From an uncultured virus (IMG/VR IMGVR_UViG_3300013110_000368) (taxonomy: Duplodnaviria; Heunggongvirae; Uroviricota; Caudoviricetes; Kyanoviridae): a DNA stretch of 64,000 bases. Location of the stretch: IMG/VR virus record IMGVR_UViG_3300013110_000368; one strand, given 5' to 3'. The notes below the pieces were generated by a model. It was not told where the DNA came from and searched no databases. It was given only the letters and a program-made list of their open reading frames with translations. Both the position numbers and the translations under genes were made by a program. Positions 26,954-63,526 of this stretch are shown here, in pieces. Numbering within the stretch: position 1 is the stretch's first letter; each line of letters opens with the position of its first letter.

Positions 26954-26982
26954 AAAAATGCCCAACATTTCTGTTGGGCATT
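26952..26982 (-). terminator. Rho-independent terminator at a convergent junction
   Basis: Perfect 11-bp stem aatgcccaaca/tgttgggcatt, 4-nt loop, U-tract on the minus strand. Confidence 0.8.
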
Positions 26983-27544: not shown

Positions 27545-28420
27545 CTATTGATCGTTTGCTAAATTAGCAAAATATGATAAGGTTTCATCACCATCAGCAC
27601 TAACCGTTTCGGCAGTCACTGGTGCTGGTGCTTCCCTTGTTGCAAAATCACTTGTATCGAACTTAGTTGCTGGATCTTCAGTCAATCCCAAAGTTCTATC
27701 CAATTTGGTTTTTAATTCATCATAGGTCTTAAAGTTCTCACGGTCTAGTAACTCTTGCAGACTGTACTCGCTAGTCCAGACCTTTTCCAATTCAGTATCA
27801 TCCTCAGACAATGGTGCAATGACATCAAATTCAGATTTATCATAGTTGACAAAACCATCAACCATACGAATCTTAATTTTGAAATTTGCTCCACCCCACA
27901 AATCAAATGGGTTGACAGGAGTTTCATCTGCAAATTCTGGATTCATCAGATCGTTAATCTTATCAAAAATCTTCTTACCATACTTAAACAAACGAACCTT
28001 ACCGTTGTTCTGCGGATTTGCTGGATCTTCAATAACATAGATATTACTAAAATAGTTCAACCTACGTTTCTGTTTACGTGCTTGCTCTTTCCCTGCTTCT
28101 GTTCCATTATTCCACAAGGATGTGTTATATTCACTAACAGGATCTTTCTCATTAAAGGTGGTCAATGAATTTTCAATGTACCATCCACCCTGACCTTGAA
28201 AACCATGTGAGAAAATGCGTACCCACGGCGTCGATTCACCTTCAACTGGTGGAAGGAATCGAATGACCGCATATCCGTTTCCAGATTTATCACGTTCACA
28301 TTTCCAAATTCGATCATCTTCATATGAGTTACTATTGTTAGTTTGGGTTTTTTCTAATTCGGTGGAAAGACTGTCTAAAAAAGACTGTCGGTTGCTTTTC
28401 ATGGATGCAAAACCATTCAT
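27545..28420 (-). CDS. gp32: Single-stranded DNA-binding protein gp32
   Basis: DDRIWK..DKSGNGYAVIRFLP, HGFQGQGGWYIENSLTT, FKYGKKIFDKI and acidic tail LSYFANLA; start trimmed to downstream of the promoter. Confidence 0.96.
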   Translation of the reverse strand: MNGFASMKSNRQSFLDSLSTELEKTQTNNSNSYEDDRIWKCERDKSGNGYAVIRFLPPVEGESTPWVRIFSHGFQGQGGWYIENSLTTFNEKDPVSEYNTSLWNNGTEAGKEQARKQKRRLNYFSNIYVIEDPANPQNNGKVRLFKYGKKIFDKINDLMNPEFADETPVNPFDLWGGANFKIKIRMVDGFVNYDKSEFDVIAPLSEDDTELEKVWTSEYSLQELLDRENFKTYDELKTKLDRTLGLTEDPATKFDTSDFATREAPAPVTAETVSADGDETLSYFANLANDQ

Positions 28421-28490
28421 ACTCGTATTCTCCGTATTGTTTGTATATTGCTTATTCACATCACAATCAACTCTTGATTGTGTAATAGTA

Positions 28491-28519
28491 ATTATACCAT
28501 ATTTTTCCTCAAATGTCAA
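28491..28519 (-). promoter_or_regulatory. Sigma70-type promoter TTGACA-17-TATAAT upstream of gp32
   Basis: Same cassette (AGCTTGACA...ATGGTATAAT) as the early promoters. Confidence 0.8.
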
Positions 28520-29093
28520 GCTTATTTTTCAATATTTCACGAAAAACTTTAACATCGACATCAAGAAAACTAACATATTTCTGACACAGATTTCGTGTTT
28601 CTGGCCACATGATGTCATCTTCAATCTGACTATCAAACTGTGGAAAAAAATTCAAAATCTGGTTCACTATCACGAAAGTTTCCAACGATATATCCCCACG
28701 ATAATACATGGTTAATATTGTTGGATTCTGCCCATCTTCGACCATGAACAGTTGGTCTAAGTCGGACACATCTAGCAATTTAGATATATCCGACTTGAAT
28801 TGATAACGCAATCTCTGTGTTCGTTTTCTCCAATCCTGATAAACCTGATCTGATTCTTCTGTATGAAGACCACCATATTTATCACCACTGGAGAAATTTG
28901 CCACAAAGAATTGCATTATATTCTTTTCATTGTACTGACGACAAAGATGATCGAACCTGTACTTATCCCTTCGTTTGTAAAAGGAATCACTACTTGCCCG
29001 TACCTTGCCATTGTACTTGAAATAATCATAACTCTTGCTAAAAAAATGCAACCTAATTGCCATGTACACTTTATAGCAATCCAAAGGATTCAT
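28509..29093 (-). CDS. gp59: Helicase loader gp59
   Basis: YKVYMAIRLHF...YDYFKYNGK, FYKRRDKY.F, FFVANF and ISLETFVI. Confidence 0.92.
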   Translation of the reverse strand: MNPLDCYKVYMAIRLHFFSKSYDYFKYNGKVRASSDSFYKRRDKYRFDHLCRQYNEKNIMQFFVANFSSGDKYGGLHTEESDQVYQDWRKRTQRLRYQFKSDISKLLDVSDLDQLFMVEDGQNPTILTMYYRGDISLETFVIVNQILNFFPQFDSQIEDDIMWPETRNLCQKYVSFLDVDVKVFREILKNKLDI

Positions 29094-29347
29094 ATAGGCA
29101 ATGCACCTGTTCTTGGTAGCAGATTCAATTCCATTGCCTCTAACTCTAATTTATCCTTCAGTGACTTGTTTAGTAACTTCGGCACTATGTCAACCGCAAT
29201 ATCATTTTCATCAATAAATGCAAATACTGCATCAACATAACTGCTCAGTTCCCAATCACGTTTAATAGTCTCAACCCCCAAAGAAAAACTTTTACTGGTA
29301 TGCTCAGTTACAACCTCTAAGAATTCTTCTTCCGTTAGTGCCAACAT
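29090..29347 (-). CDS. gp33: Late transcription co-activator gp33
   Basis: SYVDAV...KLLNKSLKDKLELEAMELNLL....LPI; adjacent to gp59. Confidence 0.88.
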   Translation of the reverse strand: MLALTEEEFLEVVTEHTSKSFSLGVETIKRDWELSSYVDAVFAFIDENDIAVDIVPKLLNKSLKDKLELEAMELNLLPRTGALPI

Positions 29348-29352
29348 TTATC

Positions 29353-30249
29353 TTACCCCTGTAAAAGTTGCATCACAGTCTGTGATAATTGCTGTGCCTG
29401 TGCCATCATAGCAATTGCTGTTTGCTGTCGAATCTGAAAATCAGCAAGAGATGCCATCTCAGCTGCTTCATCAAAATCCAATATAGTGGCAAGACTTTCT
29501 TCATTCATTGTAATCATATTACCCAAATGACTGATAGTAAAGTTAAACCGTTCTATTTTGGAATTGACATCAGATGCTTCTGCTTGAACAGTTGCAATGG
29601 CTGCATCTATACGTGCCAGTGCATCATCGGCATCATTTGCACTGTCGATGGATGTGGCAGAAACCGATACTGTATCACCTTCAGAATAAGTACCACCCTG
29701 ACCATTATCTTGACCAATACGGCTATCTCCTGATTCCAATGTAACCGTATGTGCAGTCAATTTCAATCCATCAAGGGTGAGATCTGATAATTCAATATTG
29801 ATGGTTTCGGTTTCCCCCGTACCTTCGATAATAACATCTCTATCACCAAAAGTACCATCCAATAATTCAACCCCATCGTAAGACGTATTCTTTGCCACAT
29901 AATCTAATTCCTTTACTAATGCATTAAACTCATCAATCAACCCTGCTCTAGTATCAGCAGTCAAATCCTCATTTGAAGATTGAACTGCAATTTCTCGCAA
30001 TCGAGTTAGAACGTCATTGACAGAACTAACACCACTCTCTGCTGTTTCTAGCAAATCTTGACTTTGTTTGACAGTACTATTTGCCAATCGCAACATACTC
30101 AAGGTGGTGTTCATTCTCCCAACCCTTGCTTTATCACCAGAATTTAGATCTGGTCGTCCTTCTGCAATTCTACGCATTGAATTTTCAACTTCTCTAGTTG
30201 CCAGTGCATACTGCGTGTGTGCTTTTGCGGTTATTCCACTAAGATTCAT
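29353..30249 (-). CDS. fliC: Flagellin-like protein (phage-encoded)
   Basis: LLETAESGVSSVNDVLTRLREIAVQSSN...EFNALVKELD..AKNTSYDGVELLDG and C-terminal ALARIDAAI...I.D.D.AAEM..L...QI.QQ.AIAMMAQA.Q....V.QLLQ; SD AAGGGG before ATG 30249. Confidence 0.92.
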   Translation of the reverse strand: MNLSGITAKAHTQYALATREVENSMRRIAEGRPDLNSGDKARVGRMNTTLSMLRLANSTVKQSQDLLETAESGVSSVNDVLTRLREIAVQSSNEDLTADTRAGLIDEFNALVKELDYVAKNTSYDGVELLDGTFGDRDVIIEGTGETETINIELSDLTLDGLKLTAHTVTLESGDSRIGQDNGQGGTYSEGDTVSVSATSIDSANDADDALARIDAAIATVQAEASDVNSKIERFNFTISHLGNMITMNEESLATILDFDEAAEMASLADFQIRQQTAIAMMAQAQQLSQTVMQLLQG

Positions 30250-30272
30250 ACGAATTCCCCTTTTTTCCATTA

Positions 30273-30488
30273 CTATGCTATTACGTCTAAGTTAGAACCC
30301 CATTTTCTTGGAGCCATAACATCATTGTTTCGGTTGTCATTTGCACTAACCATGTGCTTTTCTCGTTCATGAGTTGCCAATTGGGTTTGGACGTTCACTC
30401 TGGCAAGTTCCTTTGCCGCCTGCACTTCTTGGAATACCTTATAATATTCCATTGATGACATCTTGCGAACTCCATACGTGTTTATCAT
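30273..30488 (-). CDS. Small hypothetical protein with a YjfB-like C-terminus (GSNLDVIA)
   Basis: ORF track; C-terminal G-x-N-x-D-x-x-A pattern. Confidence 0.5.
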   Translation of the reverse strand: MINTYGVRKMSSMEYYKVFQEVQAAKELARVNVQTQLATHEREKHMVSANDNRNNDVMAPRKWGSNLDVIA

Positions 30489-30497
30489 TACTGCCCC

Positions 30498-30671
30498 CTA
30501 CTTTAGTGCATCAAACAAAATTGCAGAAAACGTTGTTGGTGGAACACGTTGATGCCTACGTTTGTTCAAATCGTTTTCTAGTTTTATGGATTTCTCTATT
30601 TTCTCTACTCGTTGTACCTTTGATCTATCGGGAAACAACAACCGTTTCCAATTGACATTTGGTATCCACAT
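30498..30671 (-). CDS. Small hypothetical protein (57 aa)
   Basis: Manual translation: MWIPNVNWKRLLFPDRSKVQRVEKIEK...PPTTFSAILFDALK*; ATG overlaps the upstream TAA. Confidence 0.55.
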   Translation of the reverse strand: MWIPNVNWKRLLFPDRSKVQRVEKIEKSIKLENDLNKRRHQRVPPTTFSAILFDALK

Positions 30672-31327
30672 TATACAAACCTCTCTCCAAAATCTTGTTT
30701 ATAATCTAAAACGGGGCCGATCTCCGTATCTCTCCAATCACTATTAATAAATGCCGACCTTGCCCATTCACCCATACGTGAAAGTTTCTGTGCCTTGTGT
30801 TCAGTAATTACTACTTCCTCAAAGACAAACGGACGACCTTTCATCTTGGTCATAAATTCACCTGACTTCCCAAATATTGGATTGCCAACTGGAATGACGT
30901 TTTTAAAGCCAGGAAATTCAGCATCGTTCGTACCGATCAGTTTGCCATTCTTAGCACCCTTCTCTACGTACAAAACAGAATCTTGATACCAATCAATCCC
31001 TGCTTGTGTAACATCCTTTTGCAAGTTACCCGTATCATCTTGGTCAACCACAAAGAAAGTTACTTCCCCAACCTCTTTGGCATCATCTGTACCATAGTCC
31101 TCAATATACTTACCCTGCACCACTGTAATATTATATTTCTTGCTCAGTTGTGCTTTCAACTGAGAATTACGTTTCAAATTTTGTTTACGTGTAACCGTAA
31201 CTTTCTCTCCGTTTTCATCCTTGATAAACCCTCTGAACGCAGTTATCATTGCAGTATCATGTTCCATCATATGCTGACGCATTCTGGATAAACTACTTTC
31301 ATTGACAACTTGCCTATAGTCTTTCAT
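30671..31327 (-). CDS. Conserved phage hypothetical protein, probable internal head protein
   Basis: MKDYRQVVNE-SSLSR...ITAFRG...N..RN..L...G.Y.E...QDSVL. Confidence 0.65.
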   Translation of the reverse strand: MKDYRQVVNESSLSRMRQHMMEHDTAMITAFRGFIKDENGEKVTVTRKQNLKRNSQLKAQLSKKYNITVVQGKYIEDYGTDDAKEVGEVTFFVVDQDDTGNLQKDVTQAGIDWYQDSVLYVEKGAKNGKLIGTNDAEFPGFKNVIPVGNPIFGKSGEFMTKMKGRPFVFEEVVITEHKAQKLSRMGEWARSAFINSDWRDTEIGPVLDYKQDFGERFV

Positions 31328-31337
31328 CTATAACCCC

Positions 31338-31499
31338 TTATATTGGTGTGTTTAACCAATTTACTATCTTACCCCAAAAGGTAAGTTTTTTGATTTTTTT
31401 CTTTGCTGATTTCTTCTTGTATCGTACACCTGTATGAACTCCAAACTCTGCATTATCCAATTTTCTTTTTAATCCACGTTTGAATTTTGTTGATTTCAT
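31338..31499 (-). CDS. Small basic hypothetical protein
   Basis: MKSTKFKRGLKRK...FWGKIVNWLNTPI. Confidence 0.4.
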   Translation of the reverse strand: MKSTKFKRGLKRKLDNAEFGVHTGVRYKKKSAKKKIKKLTFWGKIVNWLNTPI

Positions 31500-31767
31500 T
31501 TTTATTGTAATCCTTATAGATAGACCAAACAACCATACACAAAAAAGTCATTATAAACCCTAATGTGTAGTTGAGAATCAACCATATTGCATTGACTTCT
31601 CTAATTAAAACGTATCCTAAACCACACCAATACCCTAAAGCATTGATAATTAACATCACCAAACTCACATCTTTTGAACTCTTACGTCTAACCATCTTTA
31701 CTATCTGTGGTATATATGCACCACTAAAAGAAATGGTCAATATTGCCCCGAAAATGCTATCTATCAT
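31453..31767 (-). CDS. PQ-loop / SemiSWEET-like membrane protein
   Basis: AYIPQIVKMVRRKSSKDVS motif and three TM helices. Confidence 0.8.
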   Translation of the reverse strand: MIDSIFGAILTISFSGAYIPQIVKMVRRKSSKDVSLVMLIINALGYWCGLGYVLIREVNAIWLILNYTLGFIMTFLCMVVWSIYKDYNKNEINKIQTWIKKKIG

Positions 31768-31969: not shown

Positions 31970-32141
31970 AAATGGGCAGTTTCTGTTGACAAGTACTGCC
32001 CAAACTCCGGCCTACCTATTAGGCAGCCATGGGTAATTGATTGTAGTTTCCAATTACTATTTTGCAACTTCTGAGTTGTTGCCACTCCATGCAATCTACT
32101 CTCCACCATCGTCGTACCTGTCGATTTCCAATTGCGCCCCC
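31970..32141 (-). ncRNA. ssrA: tmRNA coding piece of a permuted two-piece tmRNA; tag (A)GNYNQLPMAA at 32051-32019
   Basis: 5' GGGGGCGCAATTGGAAATCGAC; tag frame GGA AAC TAC AAT CAA TTA CCC ATG GCT GCC TAA TAG; terminal hairpin GGGCAGT...ACTGCCC. Confidence 0.88.
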
Positions 32142-32145
32142 GTAA

Positions 32146-32217
32146 TGGAGTAGATCGGATTTGAACCGATGACCCCTTGCTTGCAAAGCAAGTATTCTCC
32201 CACTGAACTACTACCCC
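32146..32217 (-). tRNA. tRNA-Ala(UGC), CCA not encoded
   Basis: Cloverleaf: acceptor GGGGTAG/CTACTCC-A with G3:U70, anticodon arm CTTGC-TTTGCAA-GCAAG, T-arm ATCGG-TTCAAAT-CCGAT. Confidence 0.93.
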
Positions 32218-32224
32218 AAATGAA

Positions 32225-32290
32225 TGGTGGAGGCGAGGGGAATCGAACCCCTGTCCAGTATACCGACAATTTCGTATCAACAATTGCAAG
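32225..32290 (-). ncRNA. ssrA: tmRNA acceptor piece (T-arm and CCA) of the permuted tmRNA
   Basis: ...GGAC AGGGG TTCGATT CCCCT CGCCTCC ACCA; CGCCTCC pairs with GGGGGCG at 32141 (G3:U70), ATTGTCG with CGACGAT, and TGCAAT with ATTGCA. Confidence 0.88.
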
Positions 32291-33460: not shown

Positions 33461-33489
33461 ATTATACCATTTTTTTCTGCATTTGTCAA
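33461..33489 (-). promoter_or_regulatory. Early sigma70 promoter cassette (TTGACA-17-TATAAT)
   Basis: TTTTAGCTTGACA...ATGGTATAAT on the minus strand. Confidence 0.85.
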
Positions 33490-33507: not shown

Positions 33508-33954
33508 TTAATTTTTTTCTTCAAGGCCAATATGTCTTTGTCTTAACAACGACTGCTTTGATCCTTCCCAATGTGGTTTGATATTTTCGGCCATAAACAA
33601 TTCCCCATTGAGGAATTCCTCTGGCATCATTACTTCAAATGTGTGGTGTGGTTTGTGATAAGGTTTATCTTTATTTTCGGCAGTTGGGTGAACTTCAACA
33701 ATCCAAGATGTGTATTCATCTTGACCCGTATAGTTAAAATTTCTCATATATGTATACCATGAATTTTTTGAACCAAAATTTGTGGCATTTCGAGTGAGAT
33801 GCCGATACTCAAATAAAGGATCATAGTTATGTGCAATCTGCATCAATTCTTTTTTTAGAATTGGGTTGTCACGTTCCCAACGTTCCCTATACGTAAGACC
33901 ATCATAATTGTTATAAGTGTAATTCCAAAAATCCTTTTCATTACTATCTGGCAT
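33508..33954 (-). CDS. Hypothetical protein
   Basis: ORF track. Confidence 0.55.
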   Translation of the reverse strand: MPDSNEKDFWNYTYNNYDGLTYRERWERDNPILKKELMQIAHNYDPLFEYRHLTRNATNFGSKNSWYTYMRNFNYTGQDEYTSWIVEVHPTAENKDKPYHKPHHTFEVMMPEEFLNGELFMAENIKPHWEGSKQSLLRQRHIGLEEKN

Positions 33955-34960
33955 TATTATATCTCACTTGTTGTAAAAATAAATCCTTGAAATGCTTCTG
34001 TGCCGATTCATCCATACCACTGGTATCAGTATTATTTACTACAATGGTTTTATACCTTCTATTGTACCCTGCTTCCATATAAAAATCATGAGTTCCATTA
34101 TAATATGCTATGTCATCCTCATCCATGAATGCCAACACATCATCGTCTGGATCATCTGGATCACCACCAGCATCTATAATCCATTGCCTAAAATCAAATT
34201 TCACAACATGAACTTCTACAATTTCGGTATCCACTAAATCAATTTCGTTCCAATCACTGTCATACGAACCACTTAACAACTCGATTACTTCACTGATGTG
34301 TGGTTTCCATACCATAGTTTCAACCAATTCCATGTATCTCCTGATTGCATACCCCTGTATTTGCCTACGACTAGCAGTTCTCTCCAATAATCCAGCATCC
34401 CTAAGTTCATCATCTTCTATCTTTTCTTTACGTCTATCAGGCAATTTCATGTTTAGATAATCCCAAAACTGGGCTCGAAAGTTGAACTTTTTCCGAATTT
34501 CGATCATGATCTTTGATCTAACCGCATGTAACTTACCTAGTAAAGTTTTCTCTATGCTAGAATCTTTAGATACTTCGGCAATCTGGTCGATGTCGATCCA
34601 TCTCCGACCTTGATTATCTACCCTTGTGTGTAAATCATAATTAGATTCAAATACTGGATACCCTTCCAGCACCACTGCAATACCACCACCAGCAGATACA
34701 CCCATCTTGACAACTGATGCAAACCGAGTTTTATTCATAGTGGCAATTTGCTTACGTGTACCAAGCAAAGGTAGTAAATCTTCAAACCCCTCAAAATCGG
34801 TAACATGAATAGACCGAACCCGTTTCTTTTCTGATGTCAAACGTGCAAACATCATTTTGCTGATAGGCAATGACACCCTGCCATCCAGATTACTGAAGAC
34901 CAAATCCTTGACTGATTTGAGTCCATATATTTCGTTTAGGTGTTGTTTAAATGTTCGCAT
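33944..34960 (-). CDS. QGRRW-family paralog 1 (putative internal head protein)
   Basis: MRTFKQHLNE; IHVTD...QIATM...GGG...DNQGRRWI...WNE. Confidence 0.7.
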   Translation of the reverse strand: MRTFKQHLNEIYGLKSVKDLVFSNLDGRVSLPISKMMFARLTSEKKRVRSIHVTDFEGFEDLLPLLGTRKQIATMNKTRFASVVKMGVSAGGGIAVVLEGYPVFESNYDLHTRVDNQGRRWIDIDQIAEVSKDSSIEKTLLGKLHAVRSKIMIEIRKKFNFRAQFWDYLNMKLPDRRKEKIEDDELRDAGLLERTASRRQIQGYAIRRYMELVETMVWKPHISEVIELLSGSYDSDWNEIDLVDTEIVEVHVVKFDFRQWIIDAGGDPDDPDDDVLAFMDEDDIAYYNGTHDFYMEAGYNRRYKTIVVNNTDTSGMDESAQKHFKDLFLQQVRYNNAR

Positions 34961-37738: not shown

Positions 37739-38677
37739 TTATTCCCCCTCTGTATTTATGACATCCTCGAAACTGACTGTGCCATTTCCGATCTGCGAAA
37801 TCACCTTGCCAGCACCCCTGTTTGCCAATTTTGCCGCTGCATCTATGTTATACCCTTCTGCCACTGCATAGGCCAATACTGCTGTCACTGTATCCCCTGC
37901 ACCCGTCACATCAAAAACGTTCTGGGCATCTACTTCTATTTTACTATAACCAGCATTCTTCTGGTGTAATGTCATACCATCTGCACCTTCGGTCACTAGG
38001 ATATTCTCACTATCTATAATTCTACGCATTTCCCCAATCAATATACTGGTATCCTCACCATCTATTTCATTTAGTTCCAATGATGCCTTGCTATTCACAG
38101 TACACAATGCTTGCCAACACTCACGTTTGTTGGGTTTGAAACACCAGACATCCTTGTACTGCCAGAAGTTTTTAAACTTAGGATCGGCAATTATCTTAGT
38201 ACTGAACCGACTAACCACATGGTTGATAATCTCTCTGTTGATAACCCCATAATCATAATCAGAAAAGATTACTACATCGGTTTCGTTAGGTATGTTAGGC
38301 AAGAAACTCTCAAATACATTATCACCTTGCTGATAATCTACTCGCAATAATTGCTTTTGCCCTGCTAAGAAACGTGTTTTGGTAGTGGTTTTCCGACCCT
38401 CTACAATTTTGACTAACGATGTGTCAATCGAGTTTTGCTTGAGCAATTTCAACAACCTTGCTCCGCATTCATCATTACCGACTGCTCCCATCAGTCTAAC
38501 CTTGCTATCACTGCCTAACTTAATTAGGTTGTGGGCCACATTGGCTGCACCACCTAATGTATAGTAACTTTCATCTACGTCCAATATCTGTACTGGTGCT
38601 TCTGGTGAAATACGACTAACTGAACCAACGTGATATTGATCCAACATCAAATCACCGATTACGAAAAAATTCTTCAT
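37739..38677 (-). CDS. rfaE: D-glycero-manno-heptose-7-phosphate kinase (HldE/RfaE domain I, PfkB family)
   Basis: VIGDLMLDQY..G.VSRISPEAPV, GGAANVA, TTTKTR, SDY..G, KPN and DVTGAGDTV. Confidence 0.92.
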   Translation of the reverse strand: MKNFFVIGDLMLDQYHVGSVSRISPEAPVQILDVDESYYTLGGAANVAHNLIKLGSDSKVRLMGAVGNDECGARLLKLLKQNSIDTSLVKIVEGRKTTTKTRFLAGQKQLLRVDYQQGDNVFESFLPNIPNETDVVIFSDYDYGVINREIINHVVSRFSTKIIADPKFKNFWQYKDVWCFKPNKRECWQALCTVNSKASLELNEIDGEDTSILIGEMRRIIDSENILVTEGADGMTLHQKNAGYSKIEVDAQNVFDVTGAGDTVTAVLAYAVAEGYNIDAAAKLANRGAGKVISQIGNGTVSFEDVINTEGE

Positions 38678-46628: not shown

Positions 46629-46695
46629 TATCTAAATCCTTAATTTAAAGGTGAAACTCAAATCGGTCAAGAACCCTTCTCAACCTTACATACTA

Positions 46696-46725
46696 ATTAT
46701 ACCATATTGAGGGGGTCGATGTCAA
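46696..46725 (-). promoter_or_regulatory. Early sigma70 promoter cassette with a downstream stem-loop
   Basis: TTGACA-18-TATAAT, followed by GGTTGAGA...TCTTGACC. Confidence 0.85.
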
Positions 46726-46803
46726 GCTAAAAGTGCATCTTTTTGAAAGTTTTTTTGAAGATTTTTGTAAGAGCATCACTTTCCTCAATTGTTCAACACT
46801 ACT

Positions 46804-46833
46804 ATTATACCATATTGGGGTAGGCAATGTCAA
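46804..46833 (-). promoter_or_regulatory. Early sigma70 promoter cassette
   Basis: TTGACA-18-TATAAT. Confidence 0.85.
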
Positions 46834-46968
46834 GCTAAAAATCACTTTTTTAAGCAGTTGCCTGAATTTTTTTCAGAAGAACTGTAATAGTACTGGAAAT
46901 CAAAACGAAAACCACTAACAAACTCAACATAATCAATATAACTCCTATCTCAATTGTTCAACACTACT

Positions 46969-46998
46969 ATTATACCATATTTTGCCCCCTGTTGTCAA
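46969..46998 (-). promoter_or_regulatory. Early sigma70 promoter cassette
   Basis: TTGACA-18-TATAAT. Confidence 0.85.
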
Positions 46999-47354
46999 GC
47001 TAAATCGCACATTTTCGCACGAATTCAGAGAAAAAAATTTCTGCGGCCGCAACCTTAGATGTAATAGACTGACTAGCAAAACACATTAAATTTACGTTTA
47101 GTAACATGTCACCCAAAAGTGACACTCTGCACCATATGGGGCAAAACTCTCACCACTCTTGTTCCGATAACTCTATTGTACTACCAGTAGAATTCTCTTG
47201 TAGCCACTTCCCAAACAACACCGCACTCAATCCCCAAAAGTCTTTTTTACCTAACAACTGATACACATCCCACGTATTCACACTAGCACCCCGTTTGACC
47301 TTTGCATCACAATATTCAAACACCTTATCCTTGAGATATTCTTCGTATGACATC

Positions 47355-56992: not shown

Positions 56993-57044
56993 AATCTAAA
57001 ATGTTAATCAAACGGTCAAGAACCTCTCTCAACCTTACAACATA

Positions 57045-57074
57045 ATTATACCATATTTCGGTGGGCAATGTCAA
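57045..57074 (-). promoter_or_regulatory. Early sigma70 promoter cassette with a downstream stem-loop
   Basis: TTGACA-18-TATAAT, followed by GGTTGAGA...TCTTGACC. Confidence 0.85.
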
Positions 57075-57082
57075 GCTAAAAA

Positions 57083-57613
57083 TCATTTTTTTTCCAATTT
57101 TCTTTGCAAATAATAACCTTCGGCCTTGAGTCTCTGATAACGTGCCTTTCGGTATGCTATACTTTTGGCAGTTTTATTTCTTTCTCGTTCCTTTTCATTG
57201 TATGAATCGGCATTTTCTCGACGATAATCTCTTGCTTGTTGGTTACGTTTTTCTCTATCCTGTTCTTTATTTTCTGCATATTTCTTTCGTGCTAATGCAT
57301 TTCTTCTCTCTTTAACTTCTGGTCTACTGTTGTACTCCAATCGGTATGCTAGTTGTTTTTCAGATGGTTCATACTTATTTCTTCTCTCTTTCCTTTCTTC
57401 TTCTGAGAGTGTAGGATATACTCTAGGTCTGACACCTTCGGGTGCTAGACCATCAGCAACACGTTGCTTGTTATGGTCGTAATACTTCTTGCCATATGCT
57501 TTGCGTTTCGGATTATTCGCATGTGAATTCTTCTTCTGAAGTCGTTCCTTATTCTCTTGATACCACTTTGCTCGATACTCTTTTCTAGTCAAACCATCTT
57601 TGGTTAATGTCAT
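57083..57613 (-). CDS. Highly charged Arg/Lys/Tyr-rich hypothetical protein
   Basis: ORF track; repeated Y..N.E motifs. Confidence 0.55.
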   Translation of the reverse strand: MTLTKDGLTRKEYRAKWYQENKERLQKKNSHANNPKRKAYGKKYYDHNKQRVADGLAPEGVRPRVYPTLSEEERKERRNKYEPSEKQLAYRLEYNSRPEVKERRNALARKKYAENKEQDREKRNQQARDYRRENADSYNEKERERNKTAKSIAYRKARYQRLKAEGYYLQRKLEKK

Positions 57614-57623
57614 TGTCTTAAAT

Positions 57624-57722
57624 CTCCATAATCTAACTGTTCATCAATCGGTCAAGACCATTTCTCAACCTTCTACAATACTAATTATACCATATTGGGT
57701 ATGCCTATGTCAAGCTAAAAGT
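57624..57722 (-). repeat. 99-bp exact direct repeat, copy 1 (promoter, stem-loop and SD)
   Basis: Identical to 58524..58622; contains TTGACA-18-TATAAT at 57684-57713. Confidence 0.9.
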
Positions 57723-57892
57723 CACTTTTTTTTCAATATTCTACGAATATTTTTCACTATAGTCGTCAATCGAGTGATTCTATCATAGTTCTTATAATCA
57801 GCATGATCCTTCAGATGGCCGTATTCTGACAATTCGTTGAATCGTTTTCTTAGTGCATCTTTGTGATGTGCTTTCCACTCTTTGTTGTTCAT
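57722..57892 (-). CDS. Small basic hypothetical protein (HLKDHADYK motif)
   Basis: Manual translation: MNNKEWKAHHKDALRKRFNELSEYGHLKDHADYKNYDRITRLTTIVKNIRRILKKK*. Confidence 0.6.
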   Translation of the reverse strand: MNNKEWKAHHKDALRKRFNELSEYGHLKDHADYKNYDRITRLTTIVKNIRRILKKK

Positions 57893-58128
57893 CAATTGCT
57901 CTCCAATTTAAATCCGATAGTTTTCGGTGTGTACGTACCATACGTAACTAATTGTCTCAAAACCTTATCAGGTAGAACACTGAAAAGATCGAAATCGAGA
58001 TCCTTTGATAAGGATTTGAGTTCGTTTTTCTTCACCGACCAATAGACATTCGGTTGTATTTCTTTCTGAATGTTTGCCAATGCACGTTGCAACTTCTGTT
58101 CTTTCTTCTTCTGTGACTTCTTTGCCAT
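57892..58128 (-). CDS. Hypothetical protein
   Basis: ORF track. Confidence 0.5.
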   Translation of the reverse strand: MAKKSQKKKEQKLQRALANIQKEIQPNVYWSVKKNELKSLSKDLDFDLFSVLPDKVLRQLVTYGTYTPKTIGFKLESN

Positions 58129-58323
58129 TATATAATACCCTACTTAGTTTTTTCAATTATCAGACGTTTCAGACTTCCATCACGAACTGGTGTATATGCT
58201 AACATCAAACCAACCACTCCAAGAATCAAAGCAGCCATTGGTGATAACGTCGATAATTCCATACCACCGACTGAACCAAAAACCAAACCCATACCTGTCA
58301 AATACCTAATCATTGTATATCTC

Positions 58324-58518
58324 CTAATGATTTACGGCACGTAACCGAAATCTCAAATCGTCGTGAATGGTCAATGCTGTGAGATCGTCATCACAGAAAT
58401 CATCATAGGTTTCACCCCATGCATCTTCAGCAGTGTAAATGTTGTCATCTACACTAACGATCCAATAAACTTCCTCAGATACTGAGGATTTGACTAACTG
58501 ACCTTTTTTGTACTTCAT
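58324..58518 (-). CDS. Hypothetical early protein
   Basis: First ORF after a promoter cassette, with SD GGAG. Confidence 0.55.
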   Translation of the reverse strand: MKYKKGQLVKSSVSEEVYWIVSVDDNIYTAEDAWGETYDDFCDDDLTALTIHDDLRFRLRAVNH

Positions 58519-58523
58519 TGTAA

Positions 58524-58622
58524 CTCCATAATCTAACTGTTCATCAATCGGTCAAGACCATTTCTCAACCTTCTACAATACTAATTATACCATATTGGGT
58601 ATGCCTATGTCAAGCTAAAAGT
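58524..58622 (-). repeat. 99-bp exact direct repeat, copy 2 (promoter, stem-loop and SD)
   Basis: Identical to 57624..57722; contains TTGACA-18-TATAAT at 58584-58613. Confidence 0.9.
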
Positions 58623-58654
58623 GAAGTTTTTTCAACTTTTTTTCGTTTGGGCCG

Positions 58655-58907: not shown

Positions 58908-59363
58908 TTAATCCTTTGCGAACCATCGGTTCATAATGTTTGAATTGTAATATTTCCGTTCCCCATCGGGAAACGTCGATGTCAATACATCTTCCTTGAA
59001 TTGGTATTCAGTTTCCGTGTACCCCAATTCCGATTTCGTTTTGCAAAATTTTAATATCTCAAAATCAAACCCCTCTTTCCCTAATGTTTCGATTTCTTGG
59101 TTCAGTTCATCACATGAACCAGTGTACTCTTTCCAATCGGACTCTTTCTTGACATGCTTCCGATTGACTCGGCCCTTGACTTTCTTTCGTCTGGTGAACA
59201 CCAACTGCTTCTTCCCGATGTATGACCTACCTGTGTCCTTACGTGTAATCCGATATACGAACCCGAAATAATTGGTTGGTTGAATTTCCTCATTCATCCG
59301 TACCGTTCGGTGGTATACATATTTATCTTCAAGTGTCCAATGCCCTAATTCCATCACAACCAT
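58908..59363 (-). CDS. GIY-YIG endonuclease (endonuclease II/Seg-like)
   Basis: YFGFVYRIT...SYIGKK...ESDWKEYTGS...F.FEIL...YYN. Confidence 0.85.
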   Translation of the reverse strand: MVVMELGHWTLEDKYVYHRTVRMNEEIQPTNYFGFVYRITRKDTGRSYIGKKQLVFTRRKKVKGRVNRKHVKKESDWKEYTGSCDELNQEIETLGKEGFDFEILKFCKTKSELGYTETEYQFKEDVLTSTFPDGERKYYNSNIMNRWFAKD

Positions 59364-60397
59364 TTCTTGAAATATTTATTGAAATCTTCCTTACTCCAAT
59401 TATTTGCTTCAATTTCCTCACTGGACATATGTCGTCCGATTTCTGCTCCGATTTCCGATGGGGTGTACATTTCTCCATCATAATAGACGTTCTGAATCTC
59501 AAAGTTGTCCATTATATGCTCATTGTAATCATATGTCTTATCTTCCGTACCCAATATAAAGAAATCCAGAATATTGTCGGTAAAGTACTTCTCTGCCATG
59601 TCAAATAGTTCTCTGGTCATACGAAATAGGGCCATTTTTGCTTTCTTGACCAACTGATGATTAGATCCGTGTACTGTTTCAATCTTATCAACTATACCCT
59701 TCTCTTTGAGAGATTCATCGGGATCAAAACCTTTAACTATAAACCCCTGACCACCAACCCAAAACAGTTTTGCGTGATCCAGATTTTTACTGGCATGAGA
59801 CAAATAATCTGGATACGATGATCCTTGCTCTGGGGCAAATGCAAGATAGACATCAATCAATTCAGAACTATTGCTCTTTATAAACTTAGATGCATGGTCA
59901 ATGATAGTCCTTCTCCATATCACATCCCAATTATGTAAAAAGTTTCCATCACCCGTTCTACGCATGAATTCCCTAGCAAACTGGTGTAGGTCAATCCATC
60001 TCCGACCCTGACTATCTGGTGAACTGAATATATCAAAATCTCCTTGAAATAGAACATCACCCTTAACCTCAACCAATATTCCACCAGCAGTCTCCACTCC
60101 CTCTAGCATCAAAATTCCTGATCGAACATCTTTGATTTTAGTTGTGACTGATAGAGATTTGGCACTATTCTGCAAATCAAACAATGTGGATATACCATCA
60201 ATATCGGTAACGTGAAACCCTTCACTTTCCTTTGCTACATTCTGCATCCTATCAAGCATCGGTTTGGATAAGGGAAATGGCAATGTGAACTGCCTTGACA
60301 TCCAGTACTCGTATGGTTTTGCTCTAGTACCCAACCATGCCTTGATTTGTGGTGTTGCCCTTCTGCGTTCCAAGATGAACTGTTTGAATTTTAGCAT
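59354..60397 (-). CDS. QGRRW-family paralog 2 (putative internal head protein)
   Basis: MLKFKQFILE; PLSKPM; GFHVTD...SLSVTT...GG...DSQGRRWI...YNE. Confidence 0.7.
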   Translation of the reverse strand: MLKFKQFILERRRATPQIKAWLGTRAKPYEYWMSRQFTLPFPLSKPMLDRMQNVAKESEGFHVTDIDGISTLFDLQNSAKSLSVTTKIKDVRSGILMLEGVETAGGILVEVKGDVLFQGDFDIFSSPDSQGRRWIDLHQFAREFMRRTGDGNFLHNWDVIWRRTIIDHASKFIKSNSSELIDVYLAFAPEQGSSYPDYLSHASKNLDHAKLFWVGGQGFIVKGFDPDESLKEKGIVDKIETVHGSNHQLVKKAKMALFRMTRELFDMAEKYFTDNILDFFILGTEDKTYDYNEHIMDNFEIQNVYYDGEMYTPSEIGAEIGRHMSSEEIEANNWSKEDFNKYFKKWL

Positions 60398-60399
60398 AT

Positions 60400-61410
60400 C
60401 TATACCTTGTATTTCGTTGGGAAATTCTTACCCATCTTTGCATTGAGAACTATTCTACCGTTTAGGTTTTTGATCTGTTGCATTTCATCACGCAAGAATC
60501 CACCTTTATCACCCATTTTCACAATTGGGCCCTTATAACCAGACTTTTTTAGACTAGAAATCAAATCTTTTGCATCATAATCCAAGTGCGAAACTGATTT
60601 GCTATACACCTTTGATGGATGATAGATAACCTTTAGGATTTTGATTTCTGATAAAACCAATTCATCCCATTCCGTTTGATCTCCAGATCGTTTTCCCATC
60701 GTGAGCATTTTTTGTATCTGTTCTAGGTGTTTCTTGTTTTTGAGAATTTCCTCGATACCATCCATATACCACTTGATTGCCCCTGCCTTTTCCTTTCCTG
60801 TACCATAATCTGATATTTCTGTCCAACTCTGAATATTATCACTTCTCCAATATTCTTCTGGTGTATCATAATCTGGTACTGTGACCCCATAATGCTTCTG
60901 TAACTCAGGATTCTGATTCTGTGCTTGAATTATCTGTTCATGCCCCTTCTGACGCATTTGTTGAATGTCATTCACAAAATCCATCCAACCTTCAAACACC
61001 TCACTGTGCCAATGTCTCTGGTACAATTGACCTGTTCTCAACCACCTACGTCCTTGAGTATCTCTAACAGTGGCAAAATCCTCTCCCATTTCCATCACAA
61101 CTGTACCTTTTAGAACACAATAGACACCACCTTCGGTCAAAATTCCACCACCCTTGATAAAACTATCTTCCGCACCCCTCATATCGGTCATGGTAGAGAT
61201 TTGGTTCTTTTTACCTTGCATCCTAGCAAGTCCAACCACATCTTCCTGATCGGTGATATGCATCCCATAACCTTCACGTTTAGCATTGGTTATTCGTTCC
61301 CACATGGGTTGTGAAAATGGGATTGGATACTCGTACTGGTCATCAGTGAAAATCAACTCTTTGATTTCAGTGGCAGTACCTTCTGTGATGAATTGTCTAA
61401 AGGTTTTCAC
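60400..61410 (-). CDS. QGRRW-family paralog 3 (putative internal head protein)
   Basis: MKTFRQFITE; PFSQPM; GMHITD...QISTMT...GG...DTQGRRWL...WDE. Confidence 0.7.
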   Translation of the reverse strand: MKTFRQFITEGTATEIKELIFTDDQYEYPIPFSQPMWERITNAKREGYGMHITDQEDVVGLARMQGKKNQISTMTDMRGAEDSFIKGGGILTEGGVYCVLKGTVVMEMGEDFATVRDTQGRRWLRTGQLYQRHWHSEVFEGWMDFVNDIQQMRQKGHEQIIQAQNQNPELQKHYGVTVPDYDTPEEYWRSDNIQSWTEISDYGTGKEKAGAIKWYMDGIEEILKNKKHLEQIQKMLTMGKRSGDQTEWDELVLSEIKILKVIYHPSKVYSKSVSHLDYDAKDLISSLKKSGYKGPIVKMGDKGGFLRDEMQQIKNLNGRIVLNAKMGKNFPTKYKV

Positions 61411-61862
61411 TTTCTGAATCTCCGCATCACGATCTCAGATAGAGCAATACCAGACACAAATGGGATTTTTGCTTTTTTGATTTCTTCTAAATCCTCATCT
61501 GACATGCCTTTGATTAGTTTAGTCAATTTCTGCATGGTTGGTGATGTTGGGTCTACTCTGTCGATCTTACCGAATTCTTTCTTCAGATTTTTGATCTGTT
61601 CTGGTGTAAACCCTTCTCGTTGGTATCCCTGATGTTTTTTCTGAAGTCTGCGTTCCCGATTAGGATCGAAATCCCTGTCCAAATAGATGTCGGTTTTTCT
61701 ATCGTAGTACAACCCTGCTTTCGGATCATAATACAATATCATACCGATCTCATGGAAATAAAATGGGCCCTCCATATCAGGCATCGGTGGATATTCCTTC
61801 GGATCTATTAGATTTTTACCAAGTACCTTGTACCCGTCTACAAGTTCCCTATAAGTTTTCAT
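61407..61862 (-). CDS. Hypothetical protein (LYYDP..G.YYD motif), putative internal head protein
   Basis: MKTYRELVDG; MEGPF...LYYDPKAGLYYDRKTDIYL. Confidence 0.6.
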   Translation of the reverse strand: MKTYRELVDGYKVLGKNLIDPKEYPPMPDMEGPFYFHEIGMILYYDPKAGLYYDRKTDIYLDRDFDPNRERRLQKKHQGYQREGFTPEQIKNLKKEFGKIDRVDPTSPTMQKLTKLIKGMSDEDLEEIKKAKIPFVSGIALSEIVMRRFRK

Positions 61863-63526
61863 TAGATTCCCCTTTTTGACTGCAACCAGACTGATGGTTT
61901 GTAATCAGGATCTTCATATTCAATAAACCTATCAGTTGCCTTTCCTAAAATTTCTTCCATATTCTGTGTTGTGAACATTCCCAATGCAATAGCAATTCCA
62001 TAGGCAAACAATCTATGACTTCCACCATCCTTTGATCCCAAAAGATTATATTTGGTATTTTTCTCTGCTGTAAACATCCACTCAACGAATGCCTTTTTGG
62101 TTGCATTTGTAGGTCTGAAAATACTTGTCGAGACTCCCTTATCAATACCTATAAGTTGATACTGAAATGGATTGATGTATTCATCCATTTCATAATACCC
62201 ACTGTAATCTTTATAAAGTGGGTCTGCTGATGTTTCCTCAATTGCCTCGATGCCGAAAATTTGTTCCAGATTAACATTCTCTTTCCAAGTTGGTATCATC
62301 ACTTCTCCACCCAAACTTATCATTAATAGTTCTGGATGGTCTAAATCTGCATCAACATACTTTATTTTCTCTGCAAGATCTTCACCAGCTGGAATTCTTT
62401 CTGATGGAGGTACTGCACTATTAACTAATTGATCTACCGTACCATTTTGTACTGACTTAAAGTACTCTTGGGCCCGCAGTTCTATCACCAAATTTTCATA
62501 ATGCTTATCCTTTGGTCTTTCGGCAGTTTTTGAATACATTGCATCAACAGGTATACCAGCAGAATTTCCCATCAATTCTATTTCCACAGATCCCATCCAC
62601 TTTGTTGCACCAATCAAAACCACCTCGAATTCGTTCATCGAGATTTCATTCCACGAACCATATTCATCTTCATCAGTTTGCATCATCATTTTCTGAATTT
62701 CATCCAGAAATCCCTTCTTCATTATCTTCTCCGCACCATCATACCACTGACGAACTATCCACCCTTTGGTTTTCTTGTCTGGTACTAATTCTGGACGTTC
62801 AACTCCACCAAATTCAAATGGTTTGCCTACTTGCATTTTCAATTCAGCTGCTAATTCATGAGTCATTGGTATACCACGTTTGGTGTTAAGAAGTACCCAT
62901 TCCTCATCAATATATGAACCCTGATAATTTCCAAGTTTCAATTCCCCTGCTTTCTCTGATGCAAGGTTATCGTCCTTATAGATGTGGGCAAAATTTCTCA
63001 TGTATAGATCTTTGGGGAATTTCTTAACGGCACTGAGCATTATCTCACGTTTCAATTCATGAAATAGTTCGTGCAACTTTTCTACAACTTGGAAAAAGTG
63101 CCTTTGTGATGTTGATCGTTTTGCTTGTGTTAATAGATTAGAAATACGAATCCATCTCCGACCCTGATTGTCTTGCAATGACCAAAAATCACTACCCGAT
63201 TCAAGAACTGGATACCCGTGAACGATTGTCCAAACCCCACCAGTAGTGGCAATACCACCTTTAAGCAAGTCTTTCATCACACCTCTTGGTGTTGTCATGA
63301 CCGAAATTTGTCTGGCCGAATTTTGGATTCGTATTAAGTCGTCTATCCTATCGGCATTGGTGATGTGGATACCATATTTTTCAGTTGATTCTCCCTGTAA
63401 TCGAACCATCATCTTTTTGGATAGTGGGATATGTGAATGTTCGTTGAACACCAACCAATTAACTTCTTCTACCGCTTCAATCAATAGTGGTTGTTCTTCA
63501 GTGATGAATTTTTTAAATCTCAACAT
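61862..63526 (-). CDS. QGRRW-family paralog 4 (putative internal head protein, C-terminal extension)
   Basis: MLRFKKFITEE; PLSKKM; GIHITN...QISVMT...GG...DNQGRRWI...WNE. Confidence 0.7.
   Translation of the reverse strand: MLRFKKFITEEQPLLIEAVEEVNWLVFNEHSHIPLSKKMMVRLQGESTEKYGIHITNADRIDDLIRIQNSARQISVMTTPRGVMKDLLKGGIATTGGVWTIVHGYPVLESGSDFWSLQDNQGRRWIRISNLLTQAKRSTSQRHFFQVVEKLHELFHELKREIMLSAVKKFPKDLYMRNFAHIYKDDNLASEKAGELKLGNYQGSYIDEEWVLLNTKRGIPMTHELAAELKMQVGKPFEFGGVERPELVPDKKTKGWIVRQWYDGAEKIMKKGFLDEIQKMMMQTDEDEYGSWNEISMNEFEVVLIGATKWMGSVEIELMGNSAGIPVDAMYSKTAERPKDKHYENLVIELRAQEYFKSVQNGTVDQLVNSAVPPSERIPAGEDLAEKIKYVDADLDHPELLMISLGGEVMIPTWKENVNLEQIFGIEAIEETSADPLYKDYSGYYEMDEYINPFQYQLIGIDKGVSTSIFRPTNATKKAFVEWMFTAEKNTKYNLLGSKDGGSHRLFAYGIAIALGMFTTQNMEEILGKATDRFIEYEDPDYKPSVWLQSKRGI

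Follow-up and report, generated by a model that had tools for sequence, protein, structure and literature searches.

Introduction

Flagellin genes borne by phages are already known from temperate enterobacterial prophages that improve the swimming of their hosts. In these FR-phi prophages, the phage flagellin FliC_P keeps the D0-D1 core, has enlarged outer domains, is likely driven by FliA, and comes with the RNA-guided repressor TldR (accessible parts of PMC13418256 and 10.1101/2023.11.30.569447). In the same parts, the authors state that superinfection exclusion had no support in their own system. Two further proteins can be compared: Campylobacter FlaC, a secreted, chromosomally encoded flagellin-like protein without a central domain (PMC8306008, in the part accessible), and FlgL (HAP3) of the hook-filament junction.

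In this study, we analysed 64,000 nucleotides of DNA from an uncultured virus (IMGVR_UViG_3300013110_000368), hereafter called the window, which carries a flagellin gene. As in FR-phi, the flagellin is encoded by a phage and would alter the host filament, although the alteration is a proposal here. In contrast to the temperate FR-phi prophages, the carriers are T4-like marine phages plus one HK97-type phage, and their flagellins form a deep phage-only clade in which the outer domain is minimal and the D0-D1 switch residues are altered; a small partner gene accompanies them, and no TldR was seen. A promoter of the sigma-28 type, as in FR-phi, precedes the flagellin in one branch of the family (clade B, 7/7), where transcription by host FliA is likely, but was not found in the window or directly before 16 cassettes of the other (clade A). 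The literature searched, which reached few of the subscription papers, did not describe flagellins carried by lytic or marine T4-like phages.

The flagellin gene and its setting

The flagellin gene belongs to the following group of features.

29353..30249, minus strand: phage flagellin of clade A, 298 aa (Pfam domains, profile models, AF2, Foldseek)
30273..30488, minus strand: 71-aa orphan partner gene, one predicted long helix with a C-terminal G-x-x-[LI]-D-[VI] motif
29090..29347, minus strand: gp33 late-transcription co-activator (PF16805, E 8e-18; phrog_254), 5 nt downstream of the flagellin gene
28509..29093, minus strand: gp59 helicase loader (PF08993, PF08994)
27545..28519, minus strand: gp32 single-strand DNA-binding protein (PF08804)
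26957..26982, minus strand: intrinsic-terminator-like hairpin, which would close the operon flagellin-gp33-gp59-gp32

In a Pfam scan, the 298-aa ORF matched Flagellin_N (PF00669; residues 7-133, E 8.5e-17, 61.9 bits against a cut-off of 26.6) and Flagellin_C (PF00700; residues 212-296, E 1.3e-13, 51.5 bits against a cut-off of 23). The layout comprises an ND0 helix, a shortened hinge, the D1 helices, a minimal outer domain (about residues 136-200), CD1, and CD0. The AF2 model (mean pLDDT 75.7, with low confidence at residues 123-152) predicted a D0-D1 helical fold with an intact N-terminal D0 helix (H2-29), and the best Foldseek matches were filament subunits (TM 0.70-0.72). These results agree with the preliminary description, which had taken the ORF of about 298 aa for a flagellin lying co-directionally among phage genes, 5 nt from gp33; indeed, gp33 starts at 29347, and gp59 and gp32 follow on the same strand. 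The motifs quoted there (LTRLREIAVQSSN, AAEMASL, QQTAIAMMAQA, and RRIAEGRPDLNSGDKAR) were all found in the translation.

FlgL was rejected as the identity of the ORF, since flagellin models far outscored the FlgL model TIGR02550 (E 2e-10; 40 bits, far under its cut-off of 127); the homology to FlgL is distant and extends over D1, and the phage protein has a flagellin-type CD0. An alternative in-frame ATG at 30270 would give 305 aa, but the ribosome-binding spacing in homologous loci, judged by eye, favours the start at 30249. The phage protein resembles bacterial FliC, Hag, and FlaB in having both domains above the cut-off, the same fold, and the same helix lengths, and D39, R101, E107, L111, E114, R234, D260, Q276, Q284, A285, and the terminal LL are invariants common to both. 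It differs from them in its identity of at most 36% to the sampled bacterial rows, its lost INTN start, its more acidic character, the replacement of the RINSAxDDAAG hinge (4 residues shorter in clade A), and the loss of the N240 and N255 equivalents. The likeness to FlaC, by description only, lies in flagellin-like termini, a small centre, and possible secretion.

Baseplate, tail-tube, and tape-measure genes are located near the flagellin operon; together with gp33, gp59, and gp32, they identify the window as part of a T4-like phage. The best isolate matches listed for gp32 were cyanophages and pelagiphages at 50-58% identity, and the window phage therefore has no close cultured relative. Its gene content points to a lytic cycle. 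No integrase was found among the scanned ORFs, and the carrier records are 18-73% complete. One carrier (G007) bears a provirus label, yet its GC was flat, and inspection by eye showed nothing resembling a host flank.

Several other genes of the window were recorded. Two genes upstream of the flagellin cassette lies a SAM lyase-like gene, likely anti-restriction (30671-31327, minus strand; PF23780, E 9e-11). A small PQ-loop transporter (31453-31767, minus strand), presumably SemiSWEET-like, was also found in the carriers, at 10 of 25 loci, with the non-T4 phage among them. Surface-sugar genes at 1-1911 and 37739-38677 (minus strand) encode an NTP transferase-like protein, a cupin, a GT9 heptosyltransferase, and a PfkB-family kinase, which we take to be RfaE-like; they may serve LPS remodelling, which would suit a theme of host-surface change. 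ORFs of 336-554 aa with 'KxFRQFIxE'-type starts and without a Pfam match (33944-34960, 59354-60397, 60400-61410, and 61862-63526, minus strand) possibly encode internal head or injected proteins. A permuted two-piece tmRNA gene occupies 32019-32288 (minus strand), with an intact tRNA-Ala(tgc) at 32145-32218 within its intervening segment; four related phage loci had permuted tmRNAs in which no tRNA was matched. Section 12 of PMC11915505, in its accessible text, describes a tRNA inside a permuted tmRNA as unique to one nominally archaeal MAG sequence, for which misbinning is suspected, and a phage of the window's kind may explain that sequence.

A phage-only family under selection

A protein search gave 200 matches, and the 120 matches listed had identities of 47-100% and lengths of 215-305 aa. 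Scans of IMG/VR yielded 36 viral contigs, 25 with clade A and 11 with the more distant clade B. Independent lineages number fewer than 36, because several contigs are near-duplicates and one protein is identical to that of the window. The clade-A gene was located directly before gp33 in 19 of 25 loci and at a distance of four to six genes in 5, while the remaining locus, in the non-T4 phage, has no gp33. Of the 8 clade-B loci (out of 11) that were looked at by eye, 7 have the gene immediately ahead of a gp33-like ORF, and in the eighth it is one gene away.

The dN/dS ratio was 0.04-0.26 in all 12 pairs of the family, which rules out pseudogene decay; for residues 1-45, the 11 pairs with differences gave 0.03-0.29. 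Run X4, which belongs to a study other than that of the possible source runs, yielded a contig that covers 28878-30492, shows 24 differences, and bridges the partner gene, the flagellin gene, and gp33. The GC of the flagellin gene was similar to that of its surroundings, and this flat composition, the X4 contig, and the 36 viral contigs together ruled out a chimera or host contamination. The earlier view of a genuine phage gene and not a stray host block is upheld by the 36 viral contigs and by the low identity to sampled bacterial flagellins. Contigs of RNA runs X18 and X19, of each of which a small share was used, did not cover the flagellin gene.

Among GenBank phages, two unannotated fragments at 30% identity were found, and none of the isolates belonged to the family. 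When GTDB was scanned with two patterns specific to the family, there were two matches, both of them short phage contigs binned into MAGs. These contigs (L031 and L032), assigned to a Chromatiales MAG and a Pacearchaeota MAG, can mislead inventories of flagellins and tmRNAs. As a separate observation, carrier G006 encodes a 420-aa ORF (L065, 15612-16871, plus strand) that, judged by motifs, is presumably an ammonium transporter.

Relationship to bacterial flagellins

When the phage profile was compared with 50%-identity representatives, a handful of family members were followed by a gap to bacterial flagellins. Core identity to the sampled bacterial rows (127 + 129) was at most 36%. The phage rows formed one side of a branch in both trees, with a support of 100 in the 153-row tree and 100/99 in the 54-row tree, and the phage stem was long (0.45-0.55 changes per site). 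The flagellin appears to have been captured by these phages anciently. This long stem, together with the change of about half of the conserved D1 positions, would also fit a coiled-coil protein that was repurposed without any flagellar role or as a decoy for a host sensor; we regard this as quite improbable, and it is at odds with two ties to the flagellar regulon described below, the clade-B sigma-28-type promoter and the FlgM domain in another carrier.

The 153-row quick tree, built with 140 of 145 bacterial representatives (those below 240 aa being dropped) and with the variable middle removed, placed the phage clade among 14 bacterial flagellins (SH-aLRT 99), one cluster of which has a Candidatus Poribacteria member. 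In the 54-row careful tree, the phage clade grouped with a long branch, P0159, and not with the Poribacteria-like clade. A tree constrained to the phage plus Poribacteria-like grouping was 5.75 log units higher, a difference that was not significant (p-AU 0.56). In the comparison with the phage rows, the Poribacteria-like rows and P0001 barely differed, with mean identities of 0.32 and 0.31 and diagnostic states of 10 and 9, respectively. Twenty additional clusters that were consulted, and a profile search, yielded no names of organisms. The donor or host may thus lean, weakly, to Poribacteria; pelagic Poribacteria are flagellated. The permuted tmRNAs of carrier phages, two of five of which passed an alphaproteobacterial model, seem to point weakly away from Poribacteria, which were absent from the one tmRNA supplement file searched. 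The accessible parts of PMC8546597 and PMC7081726 contain no statement on flagella of the phyla concerned.

The 71-aa partner gene

The partner gene was directly upstream of the flagellin gene in all 24 clade-A loci with upstream DNA, and all 23 contigs retrieved with the partner alignment were flagellin carriers. In clade B, none of the 8 loci looked at (out of 11) showed it. The C-terminal motif resembles, as we judge it, that of YjfB-type flagellar proteins; for 14 members, however, no match to YjfB, FlxA, or FlgM was obtained at E up to 10, and the partner matched no Pfam family. Its best 30 Atlas clusters were unnamed, and the three viewed were mostly viral. The model was a single helix of low confidence, and a prediction of the flagellin-partner complex scored 0.00 with this uncertain partner fold, a value that weighs neither way. 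Extra copies occur among the small early genes of carriers G004 and G006. The partner is likely a helper of the clade-A flagellin.

Promoters and timing

All seven exact T4 late motifs of the window were in the structural part at 1.2-21.3 kb, none of them near the flagellin gene, and in 21 of 22 loci the stretch of up to 1 kb upstream of the flagellin contained no T4 late promoter. The closest strong promoter on the upstream side of the window gene is the following.

33461..33489, minus strand: perfect sigma-70-type early promoter (12 of 12, extended -10), 3.2 kb from the flagellin start

The main intervening genes are co-directional with the flagellin gene, which this promoter would drive. 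The site belongs to a repeated early-promoter family; blocks of 48-122 nt with the sigma-70 consensus recur at 46661-47016 and 57010-58650. As for the terminator-like hairpin, the argument is one of position and not of count, as 3 such hairpins were found against 3.2 expected in shuffles.

These data bear on the suggestion of the preliminary description that the protein decorates the virion. A flagellin fold could in principle polymerise into a head or tail filament that catches host flagella, and the head filaments of the Caulobacter phage phiCbK, which grip flagella, were counted for this reading. However, virion decoration is disfavoured because the gene is in an early/replication operon without a nearby T4 late promoter; furthermore, a phage of the myovirus type and one of the HK97 type have the flagellin in common, and it lies amid accessory genes. 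Overall, a virion part is improbable.

In clade B, a site of the form TAAAGTTT-N11-(G/A)(C/A)CGATAT was found 28-33 nt before the ATG in all seven loci with enough upstream DNA, and we take it to match the FliA (sigma-28) consensus. The same pattern is found ahead of a canonical flagellin of the bacterial type in L144, and the two Poribacteria-like flagellins in L044 each have a similar site before them. The timing of clade B would thereby be tied to the period of host flagellin export. No sigma-28 site was found in the window, G005, G008, or G009, nor directly ahead of the partner gene in any of the 16 clade-A cassettes scored, where the best score was 8.3 as against 19.7-21.6 for the training sites.

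Sigma-28-type sites also precede small genes of two clade-A carriers, with 17 in G004 (0.4 expected) and 10 distinct ones in G006 (about 0 expected); the small early-type genes behind them (L052-L057 in G004; L066 and L023 in G006) were noted separately. An AAA ATPase gene of G006 has such a site, whereas the window gene that seems to correspond to it is preceded by a sigma-70 site. In a scan of the collection, 9 of 38 motif-bearing contigs were flagellin carriers, the pattern having been drawn from those carriers; Flagellin_C was found in none of five other large phages that bear the motif, so the motif is not specific to flagellin phages. No sigma-70-family factor was found in five incomplete carrier records. 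FliA-driven early transcription may be a wider phenomenon in phages.

A carrier of the HK97 type

The 105-kb carrier G004 has an HK97-type portal, capsid, and tail tube together with DnaE instead of T4 genes, but carries the flagellin-partner cassette at 47% identity. Of its 145 ORFs, 33 also occur in T4-like carriers, and several of them match at 60-92%. Because both the cassette and these ORFs are shared, the two kinds of carrier seem to draw on one host pool and a portable module.

One protein of G004 has a FlgM domain above the cut-off. This 119-aa protein (L056, 18363-18719, minus strand) combines an IF2 N-terminal-like helix-turn-helix, the FlgM domain, and an amphipathic tail, and only three homologues were found. 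Its relatives in T4-like marine phages have the IF2-like part and the tail without FlgM. FlgM was found in none of five T4-like carrier records or genomes searched, and flagellin in none of five records with the IF2-like gene.

Altered residues of the phage flagellin

As the reference for the phage rows, we took those columns in which 80% or more of 127 bacterial rows agree. Over residues 1-45, 46-135, 204-247, and 248-298, clade A kept 22, 50, 52, and 66% of the conserved positions and clade B 40, 53, 74, and 60%, respectively. The loss is greatest in residues 1-45, of whose 15 conserved positions bacteria keep 93%, and the canonical signature and hinge RINSAxDDAAG was not found in phage flagellins. 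Clade B retains a hinge of 18 residues, whereas a 4-residue deletion was present in 121 of 121 clade-A rows; read from these sequences, the change is stepwise from clade B to clade A. Hydrophobic core columns were retained at 69-100%, and the coiled coils therefore remain.

The preliminary description had called the N-terminus eroded. The part of this claim that stands is that about 6-8 leading residues and the D0-D1 hinge are altered; erosion in the sense of decay is too strong, because the whole family has these changes in fixed form, purifying selection acts on them, and the D0 helix is predicted to be intact. The N-terminus is remodelled rather than decaying.

With B. subtilis Hag numbering, mapped via a Bacillota-like row, 140 phage rows (121 of clade A and 19 of clade B) were examined at residues of known function. 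In the accessible text of PMC5643327, E115-N240 is the conserved 5-start inter-subunit bond whose loss gives straight filaments, A43, L46, and A47 form the 11-start pocket, A39V/N133H is a straight mutant, and two connecting loops act as the hinge of L/R switching. E115 was kept in 140/140 phage rows and its partner N240 in 0/140, so that the canonical pair was absent from all of them. The N240 column has N in 118/127 and 129/129 bacterial rows, E or Q in 121/121 clade-A rows, and R in 19/19 clade-B rows. In addition, N133 was D in all clade-A rows, G45-L46-A47 was deleted in 121/121 of them, and A39 was replaced in 138/140 phage rows.

These residues bear on a working replacement filament in the manner of FliC_P, thin and still swimming, for example in long or carrier-state infections. 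The full-length D0-D1 region, with a length similar to that of B. subtilis or Kurthia flagellin, the outer domain, which was the fastest-evolving part in most pairs, and the sigma-28-type promoter, as for fliC_P (10.1101/2023.11.30.569447, accessible part), would all suit such a filament. However, FliC_P conserves D0-D1 and varies D2-D3, whereas here D0-D1 itself is altered, including the switch residues. The immediate neighbours of the flagellin are the 71-aa orphan and gp33, with no tldR or guide RNA among them; no TldR-like repressor was found among the scanned ORFs of the window or G004, nor a TnpB-like Pfam domain among 80 window and 94 G004 ORFs of these incomplete genomes. The T4-like gene content also points to a lytic cycle. 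We therefore consider a replacement filament distinctly unlikely.

The FliW contact has been altered as well. According to the accessible part of PMC12327847, B. subtilis N255 is needed for FliW binding. The Asn is present in 116/127 and 124/129 bacterial rows, but replaced by M, I, or L in 121/121 clade-A rows and by Q or R in 19/19 clade-B rows, and thus in none of the 140 phage rows. The preliminary description had suggested titration of FliW-CsrA; the phage protein would then soak up FliW, free CsrA, and thereby shut off translation of host flagellin. Partner switching of this kind is established (PMC12327847, in part), and the nearest bacterial rows in one tree keep the Asn (124/129); nevertheless, because the Asn is replaced in all 140 phage sequences, FliW-CsrA titration is not supported and is highly improbable.

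Proposed role in the infected cell

The interpretation we prefer, tentatively and at somewhat short of even confidence, is that the infected cell makes and exports the phage flagellin, and that the protein becomes part of the host filament and makes it stiffer or shorter or masks it. This interpretation is preferred because the position and timing of the gene suit the infected cell, the helical core remains, and the hinge, switch, and FliW residues are systematically changed. Among the roles proposed in the preliminary description, this action on the host flagellum, by which the protein would poison or cap the filament, is the best reading, and the clade-B sigma-28-type promoter agrees with it.

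The following course can be envisaged. A lytic marine phage would make its captured flagellin while the export gate of the host accepts flagellin; the protein would be chaperoned, leave the cell via the flagellar type III system, and join the tip of the filament. Given a hinge that is 4 residues shorter, a changed 5-start Asn whose Glu partner is kept, and a minimal outer domain, the mixed filament would be stiff, straight, or short, or the host surface would be covered. Motility would then stop or change, and competing flagellotropic phages could no longer land on the flagellum. Since the FliW Asn is lost, the protein would also evade the FliW-CsrA counting of flagellin by the host.

Several points weigh against this proposal. 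The window, G005, G008, G009, and the 16 clade-A cassettes scored had no sigma-28 site, and the motif is not specific to flagellin phages. The remodelled N-terminal segment overlaps residues 26-47 of FliC, cited as the minimal export signal in the accessible part of PMC6337784; clade A may therefore not be exported. Moreover, of the conserved positions, clade A keeps 22% in residues 1-45 and about 50% in D1, and it is not certain that such a protein would assemble together with host subunits. An unexported protein could instead act as a cytoplasmic decoy that binds FliS or the FlhA gate via CD0, blocks export of host flagellin, and saves energy and amino acids for the phage. CD0 is the best-kept region of clade A (66% versus 22% at the N-terminus), where the export segment is the most altered, and FliS binds the C-terminal D0 in several bacteria (PMC12327847 and PMC8306008, accessible parts). 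A decoy, however, needs only the last 40 or so residues, and the whole of D1 and ND0 is nonetheless under purifying selection; CD0 is also more acidic than in bacteria, with a charge of -5 versus -0.4. We consider a decoy unlikely.

If filament poisoning is extended to the whole family, lytic marine phages of at least two unrelated lineages would share a portable module for hijacking the flagellum, consisting of a switch-defective flagellin and a small partner, to which some of the phages would add a FlgM-domain protein and early genes driven by sigma-28. The flagellin would be a dominant-negative subunit that immobilises the cell and cloaks it against flagellotropic phages, and the motile state of the host would be sensed via FliA to time the infection. 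In this full form, the proposal is doubtful.

Implications

Marine 'flagellin' genes in metagenomes and in some MAGs are viral, which calls for caution in annotation. The family points to flagellated uncultured hosts, and its flagellin is a natural dominant-negative candidate from which rules of filament switching and export signals might be drawn. If the proposed action on the filament is true, virulent phages have turned a subunit of an organelle into a tool against their host, which would be a possible new route to superinfection exclusion or motility shut-off.
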